From NCBI RefSeq assembly GCF_003324675.1, contig NZ_CP030918.1, positions 2,190,001 through 2,222,000 of the forward strand: a stretch of 32,000 nucleotides of DNA. Reading direction: 5' to 3'. Made by a program: the position numbers and the translations under genes. This stretch comes from Paracoccus suum. GTDB taxonomy: Bacteria > Pseudomonadota > Alphaproteobacteria > Rhodobacterales > Rhodobacteraceae. The notes beneath the pieces are model-generated. The model saw nothing but the letters and a program-made list of their open reading frames with translations, made no database searches and was not told the DNA's origin. Positions within the stretch are counted from its first letter, which is position 1, and each line of letters begins with the position of its first letter. Below, piece after piece: positions 24,821 to 29,527 of the stretch.

Positions 24821-25417
24821 ATGGCACGCACACACGGCTCCCGCGCCGGGACCACCGGCCCGCTGATCCGCGCCGCCGCATTGCGGCTGTTCGCGCGGCA
24901 CGGCTATGACGGCGTGAGCATGCGCCAGATCGCGGCCGAGGTCGGGCTGCAGGCTGGCGCGCTCTACGGTCATGTGCCGGACAAGCAGGCGCTGCTGTTC
25001 GGGCTGCTGTCGGATCACATGACCGCGCTGCTGGCCGCATGGCAGGACGACCCGGCCGCCGCGCCACTGACGCGGCTGGAGGCCTTCGTGCGCTTTCATG
25101 TCCGGCTGAGCCTGGAGCATGCCGACGGGGTCTTTCTCAGCATGATAGAGTTGCGTTCGCTGACGCCGGAAAACCTGGCGCGGATCACCGCCCAGCGCCG
25201 CAGCTATGAGGATGCCTTGCAGGTCATCCTCGATGCGGGTCGGGCCGATGGCACCATGCATGTGACCGAACCGCGGCTGACGGCGATGGCGCTGATCGCC
25301 ATGCTGACCGGGGTCACCAGCTGGTATCGCGCGGGCGGCCGCCTCGACCGCGAGCGGATCGAGGCCCTCTACTGGGGCCTGGTGCGCGGCGCCGTCACCG
25401 GCGGGGACCGAGCATGA
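24821..25417 (+). CDS. TetR/AcrR-family transcriptional regulator
   Basis: N-terminal HTH: LIRAAALRLFARHGYDGVSMRQIAAEVGLQAGALYGHVPDKQALL. 198 aa. The stop overlaps the dnaG ATG (ATGA at 25414-25417). Confidence 0.88.
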   Translation: MARTHGSRAGTTGPLIRAAALRLFARHGYDGVSMRQIAAEVGLQAGALYGHVPDKQALLFGLLSDHMTALLAAWQDDPAAAPLTRLEAFVRFHVRLSLEHADGVFLSMIELRSLTPENLARITAQRRSYEDALQVILDAGRADGTMHVTEPRLTAMALIAMLTGVTSWYRAGGRLDRERIEALYWGLVRGAVTGGDRA

Positions 25418-27321
25418 GCCTTCCACCCGGATTTCTGGACGAGCTGCGGGCGCGCGTGCCGTTGAGCCGGGTGATCGGCCGGCGCGTGACCTGGGACCTG
25501 CGTCGTAGCAACCAGGCGAAGGGCGACTGGTGGGCACCCTGTCCCTTTCACCACGAAAAGACTGCCAGCTTTCACGTCGATGACCAGAAGGGGTTTTATT
25601 ACTGCTTTGGCTGCCACGTGAAGGGCGATGCCCTGACCTTCCTACGCGAGGCCGAGGGTCTCGGCTTCATGGAGGCTGTGGCCGCCATGGCGTCCGAGGC
25701 CGGCATGGCGATGCCCGAGCGCACGCCCGAGGCGCGCCAGCAGGCCGACCGGCGCGGCCAGCTTTACGAGGTGATGGAGGCAGCGGTGCGTTGGTTCCGG
25801 CTGCAGTTGCAGACCGGGCCGGCGGGGCCGGCCCGCGATTACCTGACCGCGCGCGGGCTCGATGGCGAGGCGTCGGAATGCTTTGGCCTCGGCTTTGCCC
25901 CCGGCGCAAGGCGGGCGCTGACCGAGGCCATGCTGGCCAAGGGCATCAAGGCCGAACTGCTGGCAGAGGCCGGGCTGACGATCCAGCCCGACGACGGCGG
26001 CGCGCCCTATGACCGCTTTCGTGACCGGATCATCTTTCCGATCCGCGACGCGCAAGGCCGGGCGATCGCGCTGGGCGGGCGGGCAATGGACCCCAATGCC
26101 CGTGCCAAATACCTGAATTCGCCGGAAACACCGCTCTTCGACAAGGGTCGCAACCTCTACAATCTCGGGCCGGCGCGGGCGGCTGTTGGCAAGGGCCAGC
26201 CGCTGCTGGTGGCCGAGGGCTACATGGACGTGATCGCGCTGGTGCGCGCCGGCTTCGAGGGGGCAGTCGCACCGCTGGGGACCGCCATCACCGGCGATCA
26301 GTTGCGCCTGATGTGGCGCGTCTCGCCCGAGCCGGTGATCGCGCTGGATGGCGACGCCGCCGGCCTGCGGGCCGCGCTGCGGCTGGTCGATCTCGCCCTG
26401 CCGCTGACCGGCCCGGGGCAGGCGCTGCGCTTTGCCATGCTGCCGCCCGGCCTCGATCCGGACGATCTGATCCGCCGCGAGGGCGCCGGGGCGATGCGCC
26501 AGGTGATCGAGAGCGCGCGGCCCTTGGTCGACCTGTTGTGGCAGCGCGAGACCGAGGGGCGCGTCCTCGACAGCCCCGAGCGGCGGGCCGCGCTGGATCA
26601 CGCGCTGCGCGCAGCGGTCCAGCAGATTCCCGACCCCGCGACCCGCAGCCACACCGAGGCCGAGTTGAACGCACGCAAGCGCGCGCTGTTCGCCCCCTTG
26701 CCGCGCGAGGCGGCGGGCGCCCCCCGAAACTCCGGGACGCGCCGACGCGGCGCACCTGCGGCCCCTGCGCCGGCACGGGCGGAGACGCGCGCCTCGGTTC
26801 TGGTCGCCTCGGACGAGGGTGAGCGGCTGCTGGAGGGGCTGATCCTCGCGATTTGTGCGCGCCATCCGGATCTGGTCCATGGGCTGGAGGGGCGGCTCGA
26901 ACGCCTCGATCCGTCCGATCCGCCGCGGGCTGCGCTGCTGCATGATCTGCTGTCGGGCCGCGAAAGCCCGGCCGGGCGTGCCGCCCTTGACGCACTGCTG
27001 GACGATCCCCATCTGCGCACCGCACCGCCCCTGCAAGGCGGCGCAGGTCCCGATCTCGCCGGCCCGGTCCTTCAAAATGCCCTCGACAAACTCGAGGCGC
27101 GGCGGGCGGCGCGGGCCGAACTGGTGCGGGCCGAGGCGGAAATGTCCGGGTTGGTGGACGAGGGGCTGACCTGGCGCGTTGCGCAGTTGGCCCAGGCGCG
27201 CGAAGCGGCCGACCGTCCGCAGTGGAACGATACCGCCGATCTCGGCGAGGACAGCGAGGCCCTGAGCGCACATCTTTCGTCGCTGCTGGAGGACGAAGTG
27301 TGGCGCAAGAAACGGACCTGA
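25414..27321 (+). CDS. dnaG: DNA primase DnaG
   Basis: Zinc-binding CPFHHEKTASFHVDDQKGFYYCFGCHVKGD. RNA polymerase core (DRFRDRIIFPIRD, KYLNSPETPLFDKG). TOPRIM (LLVAEGYMDV, ALDGDAAG). Confidence 0.93.
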   Translation: MSLPPGFLDELRARVPLSRVIGRRVTWDLRRSNQAKGDWWAPCPFHHEKTASFHVDDQKGFYYCFGCHVKGDALTFLREAEGLGFMEAVAAMASEAGMAMPERTPEARQQADRRGQLYEVMEAAVRWFRLQLQTGPAGPARDYLTARGLDGEASECFGLGFAPGARRALTEAMLAKGIKAELLAEAGLTIQPDDGGAPYDRFRDRIIFPIRDAQGRAIALGGRAMDPNARAKYLNSPETPLFDKGRNLYNLGPARAAVGKGQPLLVAEGYMDVIALVRAGFEGAVAPLGTAITGDQLRLMWRVSPEPVIALDGDAAGLRAALRLVDLALPLTGPGQALRFAMLPPGLDPDDLIRREGAGAMRQVIESARPLVDLLWQRETEGRVLDSPERRAALDHALRAAVQQIPDPATRSHTEAELNARKRALFAPLPREAAGAPRNSGTRRRGAPAAPAPARAETRASVLVASDEGERLLEGLILAICARHPDLVHGLEGRLERLDPSDPPRAALLHDLLSGRESPAGRAALDALLDDPHLRTAPPLQGGAGPDLAGPVLQNALDKLEARRAARAELVRAEAEMSGLVDEGLTWRVAQLAQAREAADRPQWNDTADLGEDSEALSAHLSSLLEDEVWRKKRT

Positions 27322-27385
27322 AGCTGGCGCGACGGCGTTTTACCTGCCGCTGATGCATGAGCATCTGCCTGACGAGGGCGCCTTT

Positions 27386-27514
27386 GCGAATCACCGGGGC
27401 GAATCACCTGCGGTTTCAGGCAGGCATTTACCGCCGGCTGGGCTTTCTCAGCCGCCGGCGACACGATAGACCCGGCGGGAGCCGCTGTGATTCGGGCCAG
27501 CAACCGAATCACCC
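27386..27514 (+). repeat. Four copies of CGAATCAC(C) in the dnaG-rpoD spacer (three direct, one inverted), interleaved with CCGCCGG(C) copies (two direct, one inverted)
   Basis: GCGAATCACC at 27386-27395 and 27399-27408. GTGATTCG at 27487-27494. CCGAATCACC at 27504-27513. CCGCCGGC at 27431-27438 and 27452-27459. CCGGCGG at 27472-27478. All were read directly from the sequence. Confidence 0.75.
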
Positions 27515-27544
27515 AGCGCCCCGACCATTGTCAGGAGAGCCTCG

Positions 27545-29523
<1,979 letters not shown>

Positions 29524-29527
<4 letters not shown>

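Follow-up and report, generated by a model that had tools for sequence, protein, structure and literature searches.

The spacer between dnaG and rpoD of Paracoccus suum raises the question of why four copies of a single 8-mer should be crowded in front of the gene for the housekeeping sigma factor. The window analysed here is a stretch of 32,000 nucleotides (contig NZ_CP030918.1, positions 2,190,001 to 2,222,000), and coordinates refer to it unless genome positions are indicated. The spacer measures 223 bp and lies between dnaG (25414–27321) and rpoD (27545–29527); the identities of both genes and of the TetR-family gene at 24821–25417 were confirmed by NCBIfam. Three direct copies of CGAATCACC are present at 27387–27395, 27400–27408 and 27505–27513, and an inverted copy, GTGATTCG, at 27487–27494. 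Copies one and two stand in tandem with a period of 13 bp, GCGAATCACC ggg GCGAATCACC, in which GCGAATCACC spans 27386–27395 and 27399–27408; CCGAATCACC spans 27504–27513. The inverted and the last direct copy form a 9-bp perfect inverted repeat (GTGATTCGG / CCGAATCAC, 27487–27495 / 27504–27512) with an 8-nt loop, which terminates 20 nt 5' of the rpoD SD sequence (AGGAG, 27533–27537; ATG at 27545). The coordinates, the 13-bp tandem, the 9-bp hairpin and its loop had all been described in the initial annotation of this DNA and were found as given there. The annotation left three readings side by side: a methylation- and GcrA-responsive promoter region, operators of the TetR protein encoded upstream of dnaG, and a leader RNA switch with competing hairpins. 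The elements on which the argument turns are the following, with distances counted from the rpoD start predicted below.

27387–27393, minus strand: upstream box U1, CGAATCA on the top and TGATTCG on the bottom strand, GANTC at 27389–27393, about -89 from the predicted start; fits YGAKTCG (PMC4647560)
27400–27406, minus strand: upstream box U2, CGAATCA on the top strand, 13 bp after U1, about -76 from the predicted start
27488–27494, plus strand: downstream box D1, TGATTCG on the top strand, centre about +13 from the predicted start
27505–27511, minus strand: downstream box D2, CGAATCA on the top strand, centre about +30 from the predicted start
27487–27512, plus strand: inverted repeat composed of D1, D2 and one flanking base on each side, a local hairpin in the predicted leader fold
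27533–27547, plus strand: rpoD SD (AGGAG, 27533–27537) and start codon (27545–27547)

A further perfect 8-bp inverted repeat, CTGCCTGA / TCAGGCAG (27365–27372 and 27416–27423), flanks both upstream boxes. It lies in the genome-specific part of the spacer and is without counterpart in congeners.

All four sites read (T/C)GATTCG and each contains GANTC (4/4), as had been pointed out. GANTC sites methylated by CcrM are read by the cell-cycle regulator GcrA. Among such methylated sites, GcrA prefers TGATTCG and, more broadly, YGAKTCK (Haakonsen 2015, PMC4647560), and the motif is also given as YGAKTCG (Wu 2023, PMC9976885). The motif that the initial annotation had named, YGAKTCK, was thus correct, and the extended context is found at 4/4 sites. 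The rule is not universal, since the GcrA of Brevundimonas showed no preference for the extended motif (PMC7987155).

For a site logo, all GANTC preceding rpoD were collected from 24 Paracoccus species and 75 other Rhodobacterales (430 sites). The 5' position is Y in 96%, the central position T in 99% and the 3' position G in 93% of the 124 Paracoccus sites, with corresponding values of 96%, 97% and 91% for the 306 sites of the other Rhodobacterales. For all 4086 GANTC of this genome the values are 59%, 70% and 39%. The flank bias before rpoD relative to the genome as a whole therefore argues for selection on the 7-mer read by GcrA and not merely on the methylation pentamer. This selection is equally strong on either orientation of the 7-mer, a hallmark of sites in duplex DNA. 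Boxes of two other regulators were considered and rejected: the spacer is without any TTAA and hence without a CtrA box (TTAA-N7-TTAA), and the flanks required of a DnaA box show no conservation in the logo.

The genome consists of one contig of 3,250,998 bp with 66.9% G+C. Counted on both strands, the 8-mer CGAATCAC/GTGATTCG has 25 copies genome-wide, four of which lie inside 129 bp of the dnaG-rpoD spacer; the remaining 21 copies of CGAATCAC are scattered singles. The clustering is therefore not due to chance, as the initial annotation had maintained, and the dispersed REP-like element that it had named as a counter-explanation is ruled out by copy number. GANTC itself is rarer than composition predicts (4086 observed against ≈ 10,000 expected in the whole genome). 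Only 8 places in the whole genome have at least four GANTC within 130 bp, and the rpoD spacer, with 4 GANTC in 118 bp, is one of them. The comparison of GANTC density proposed in the annotation thus reveals a pentamer that is depleted genome-wide and clustered here.

A crude gene call based on codon usage (2941 genes, 88% coding) yielded 2188 intergenic regions. One box is present in 116 of these, two in 14, three in 1 and four in 3. The other two four-box regions are stretches of 2.7 and 6.7 kb without called genes, which leaves the rpoD spacer as the sole short region with four boxes. Two-box regions precede ftsZ, mraZ, a class II ribonucleotide reductase, an nrdH-like glutaredoxin, a DUF882/M15 peptidase and an L,D-transpeptidase. 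These genes match the Caulobacter GcrA regulon classes of nucleotide synthesis, division and envelope (PMC9976885), which makes it plausible that a GcrA-type regulon exists in this Paracoccus.

The ftsZ upstream region (genome positions 543672–543888, outside the window) carries two GcrA-type boxes, CGAATCG and CGACTCG. Two boxes each are also found before mraZ, nrdJ and the nrdH-like gene, giving a candidate GcrA regulon. Within 70 bp upstream of the ccrM start (genome position ≈ 274903, minus strand) there are three GANTC, one of them in box context (CGATTCG), and these sites recall the methylation feedback on ccrM in Caulobacter.

Both proteins are encoded in this genome. Compared with Caulobacter CcrM (6pbd), the CcrM orthologue (374 aa) scores 558.7 bits over its full length; it has both the N6_N4_Mtase and the RAMA domain. 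The GcrA orthologue scores 167 bits to PF07750, and its DNA-binding and sigma-interacting domains both align with the known structures (7ye1, 5yiu, 5yix). GcrA residues 1–45 share ≈ 84% identity with the DNA-binding domain crystallised from Caulobacter (5yiu). The recognition helix is unchanged, the stretch TRNAVIGKVHRLGL being identical to that of Caulobacter.

The boxes are retained among relatives although the spacer around them cannot be aligned. A BLAST search with the 223-bp spacer against representatives of 151 Paracoccus species gave a single 29-bp match, over the last box, and spacer alignments among relatives end at gene boundaries. Counted within 200 bp before rpoD, 3–6 boxes are present in 23/23 other Paracoccus species, so that the repeats are far from being absent in close relatives, an outcome that the initial annotation had considered would speak against it. 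When 29 further genera were drawn evenly from this GTDB family, 2–6 boxes were present in 29/29, with at least three in 27/29 and two in the other two, and at least two boxes were found in 70/75 Rhodobacterales loci from public collections. Upstream boxes of the U type recur in the same orientation in congeners, numbering one to three. Before rpoD, Paracoccus has 32 boxes per kb and the family draw has 19, as against 0.63 and 0.19 per kb in the 1.5-kb flanks on either side, which is 50- to 100-fold above the flanks. No array was seen in 32 genomes from other alphaproteobacterial families; these have 0–2 GANTC before rpoD, with two boxes in one genome, one in two and none in the rest. In a sister family of the same order, boxes were found in 0 of 5 genomes, though GcrA is encoded in 5/5.

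Many roseobacter-group genera show a strongly conserved block, GGTAAACGGGTG(G/T)(C/G)CGAATCA, ≈ 75–95 nt before the rpoD ATG. The GGTAAACGGGTG block is present in seven loci and in others, and Paracoccus is without it. An A-rich run precedes the block, just 5' of the first box. The block may represent a -35 region together with an UP element; alternatively, it may be an additional binding site.

A generic scan for E. coli-type promoters and terminators found none at the spacer. The promoter was predicted from the genus alignment together with the alphaproteobacterial consensus, and the start was set 7 nt after the -10 octamer. The Paracoccus alignment contains a conserved predicted promoter, TTGATTC-N13-GCTAGAAC, which matches the Caulobacter sigma-73 consensus (TTGaCg and GCtANAWC; PMC13004042). 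In P. suum the predicted elements are:

27445–27450, plus strand: predicted -35, TTCTCA, 4/6 to TTGACA, from the genus alignment and promoter scoring
27465–27472, plus strand: predicted -10, GATAGACC; congeners have GCTAGAAC, equivalent to Caulobacter sigma-73 GCtANAWC
27479 (within ≈ 3 nt), plus strand: predicted rpoD start, derived from the -10 position, giving a leader of ≈ 66 nt

The -35 position reads TTGATTC in 14/23 other Paracoccus species. In 12 species a G follows, which creates a GcrA box centred at -30 with the -35 hexamer included; this box is lost in P. suum. Relative to the predicted starts, the box centres of P. suum are at -89, -76, +13 and +30, and those of congeners include -30 (12 species), -18/-19 (2 species) and upstream copies from -46 to -89. 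A box at +13 to +16 and another at +28 to +32 are each present in 23/24 Paracoccus species. The P. suum spacer is 50–100 bp longer than those of its congeners. In Caulobacter, GcrA is reported to work from -30 ± 2, -20 ± 1 and +5 to +30 (PMC9976885); with the start as predicted here, this range does not include the boxes at -76 and -89. Genera other than Paracoccus have a different but equally rigid layout, with box centres 21 and 13 bp on the 5' side and 14 bp on the 3' side of a reference box. This reference box abuts a CTAnnT-type -10, placing the boxes at ≈ -27, -19, -6 and +9 from predicted starts. P. suum accordingly has the Paracoccus-type layout (+13, +30 and far-upstream copies, with -30 lost) as opposed to the -27/-19/-6/+9 of most other genera.

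The predicted -10 is bracketed by a 7-bp inverted repeat, CCGCCGG / CCGGCGG (27452–27458 and 27472–27478), which is statistically unremarkable. In two or three congeners the -10 likewise lies between G+C-rich arms.

The reading that we prefer, at a probability of about 0.68, is that the four repeats are high-affinity GcrA boxes in double-stranded DNA, placed on CcrM sites around a sigma-70-type rpoD promoter. The supply of the housekeeping sigma factor would then probably be tied to DNA methylation. This corresponds to the first of the three readings offered originally, and it is favoured by the motif, by the presence of the CcrM and GcrA genes, by the rank of this spacer within the genome and by the family-wide occurrence of boxes close to the predicted promoters. 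According to this model, CcrM would methylate the adenines of the boxes, and GcrA, travelling on sigma-70 region 2 of RNA polymerase, would read the methylated boxes at ≈ +13 and ≈ +30 (also at -30 in about half of the sister species) through its N-terminal domain. Box reading would help the holoenzyme to load on a promoter with weak -35 and -10 elements, and the two far-upstream boxes would probably favour capture of GcrA-holoenzyme nearby. Since rpoD encodes sigma-70, the partner of GcrA, the result would be a positive loop in which sigma supply is coupled to the methylation and replication state. It is the start site, the methylation, the binding of GcrA and the direction of the effect that we infer in this scheme.

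A modest precedent, by analogy, comes from Caulobacter, where depletion of GcrA lowered PrpoD-lacZ activity to 68% of the wild-type level (bioRxiv 10.1101/741363). Cumulative GC skew has its minimum at ≈ 0.755 Mb (origin) and its maximum at ≈ 2.514 Mb (terminus). With rpoD at 2.217 Mb, the gene lies ≈ 83% along the replichore, ≈ 0.3 Mb from the terminus; it would hence replicate late, be fully methylated during most of S phase and become hemimethylated only towards its end.

The boxes might instead be operators of a different protein, either specific to Rhodobacteraceae or methylation-sensitive, that recognises (T/C)GATTCG; or the methylation state alone, full or hemi-methylated after passage of the fork, might tune the sigma-70 promoter without GcrA. 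Several features would suit such an explanation. Arrays of 3–6 boxes, with rigid centre spacings of 8, 13 and 14 bp in the non-Paracoccus genera, are atypical when compared with the single-box promoters of Caulobacter and could reflect another mode of action or another reader. The array is moreover restricted to one family, GcrA being far more widespread, and with the predicted starts the upstream boxes at -46 to -89 are beyond the known reach of GcrA. Nevertheless, we consider this explanation unlikely, since the conserved flanks are exactly the published GcrA optimum, the recognition helix of GcrA is intact and the genes behind the other multi-box regions are typical of the GcrA regulon. We know of no other reader of (T/C)GATTCG.

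It appears quite improbable that the repeats act at the RNA level in the rpoD leader, whether as switch, processing site or stabiliser, with the terminal hairpin (27487–27512) competing against long-range pairing to the upstream copies. The local hairpin is indeed present in the minimum-energy fold, the 83-nt leader counted from 27478 folds better than shuffled sequences (z -2.8), and a convergent GATTCG...CGAATC pair occurs 25–60 nt before the ATG in 70/99 species. No terminator was found after dnaG by the generic scan, so that read-through could bring the upstream copies into the RNA. However, conservation of the 7-mer in both orientations points to duplex DNA, and two of the copies lie 5' of the promoter as predicted. 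Outside the 7 box pairs, pairing does not exceed chance (14/70 for the second outer pair, 22/62 and 19/51 for the inner pairs); what is conserved is sequence and not pairing, and hence there is no covariation. In nine species the spacing of the two proximal boxes leaves no room for them to fold on each other, with 0 nt between them in eight and 2 nt in one. An Rfam scan of 26800–28000 at permissive E-values returned chance matches only, to eukaryotic and unrelated families. The 9-bp hairpin is best described as a by-product of two convergent boxes and not as a conserved structure.

Of the two folds proposed in the initial annotation, the local terminal hairpin is in the predicted fold, while the long nested alternative appears in neither the minimum-energy nor the centroid structure of the full spacer. 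The second motif on which that alternative drew is present as reported, with CCGCCGGC at 27431 and 27452 and CCGGCGG at 27472, but it is not significant and was rejected. When 223-bp windows are taken at random from this genome, 15% contain an equivalent combination (an 8-mer twice plus its 7-mer inverted), and the motif is not conserved in relatives.

That the TetR-family regulator whose gene precedes dnaG (24821–25417) uses the repeats as its operators is very improbable, for although its gene overlaps the dnaG start (ATGA), the order TetR-dnaG-rpoD is kept in at least 20 of 24 Paracoccus species and an orthologue is found in 21/24 (one on a separate contig), the phyletic pattern is against it: the boxes are present in 8 genera without a TetR orthologue (E ≤ 1e-20) and also where the orthologue lies 8–17 kb away, on another contig or, in one genome, ≈ 1.75 Mb off on the same contig, they vary in number (2–6), spacing and orientation, unlike a TetR palindrome, and the 8-mer is absent before the TetR gene itself. 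Linkage of TetR to dnaG was seen in Paracoccus and one other genus, the gene elsewhere in the family being mostly 8–17 kb from rpoD, which suggests that TetR and rpoD belong to a conserved neighbourhood since rearranged.

GcrA boxes on CcrM sites at promoters are a known kind of element. Among Caulobacter promoters that are CcrM-methylated and activated by GcrA, PcsM has its box at -20 and PmipZ has boxes at +4 and +12 (PMC4647560; PMC9976885); most Caulobacter GcrA promoters have a single box (PMC9976885). The P. suum region resembles them in box sequence (TGATTCG / YGAKTCG) and, if the predicted promoter is right, its boxes and those of congeners would fall in the same position classes, -30, -20 and +5 to +30. 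CcrM and GcrA are encoded in both organisms, with the same DNA-binding helix in GcrA. The rpoD promoters differ in having 3–6 boxes, with extra copies at predicted positions from -46 to -89, beyond the known working range. They differ also in their target, which is the gene of GcrA's own partner sigma-70, and in the restriction of the array to one family.

In Caulobacter, the CcrM-dependent promoters of ftsZ and mipZ and the methylation feedbacks on ccrM and ctrA link division and replication genes to methylation. P. suum likewise has GANTC at the promoters of core cell-cycle genes (two boxes for ftsZ, three GANTC for ccrM), but its densest putative target is the housekeeping sigma gene. The E. 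coli rpsU-dnaG-rpoD macromolecular-synthesis operon contains internal rpoD promoters. Similarly, rpoD of P. suum follows dnaG and apparently has its own promoter in the spacer; in Paracoccus, however, a TetR gene takes the place of rpsU. To our knowledge there are no methylation-reader boxes in the E. coli dnaG-rpoD spacer. A literature search of incomplete coverage found no paper on a GcrA-box array at rpoD in Rhodobacterales.

A wider proposal can be put forward only tentatively. Among the Alphaproteobacteria sampled, it may be in Rhodobacteraceae only that rpoD is the most box-dense GcrA/CcrM target. The sigma-70-GcrA holoenzyme would there drive the synthesis of its own sigma factor, and the state of the chromosome, in methylation and replication, would gate the total capacity for transcription. 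The array, including boxes past the known reach of GcrA, would then constitute a capture platform that is new with respect to the Caulobacter promoters.

The cell-cycle regulators GcrA and CcrM, studied mainly in Caulobacter, are known for their control over genes of division, replication and polarity. The rpoD array offers a natural multi-box promoter for studying how box number, orientation and distance enter into GcrA action. If our reading is true, the array puts the supply of the housekeeping sigma factor, the binding partner of GcrA, under epigenetic control by GcrA and CcrM. A feedback loop between global transcription capacity and DNA methylation would then operate in roseobacters, Paracoccus and Rhodobacter, a large and ecologically important group.
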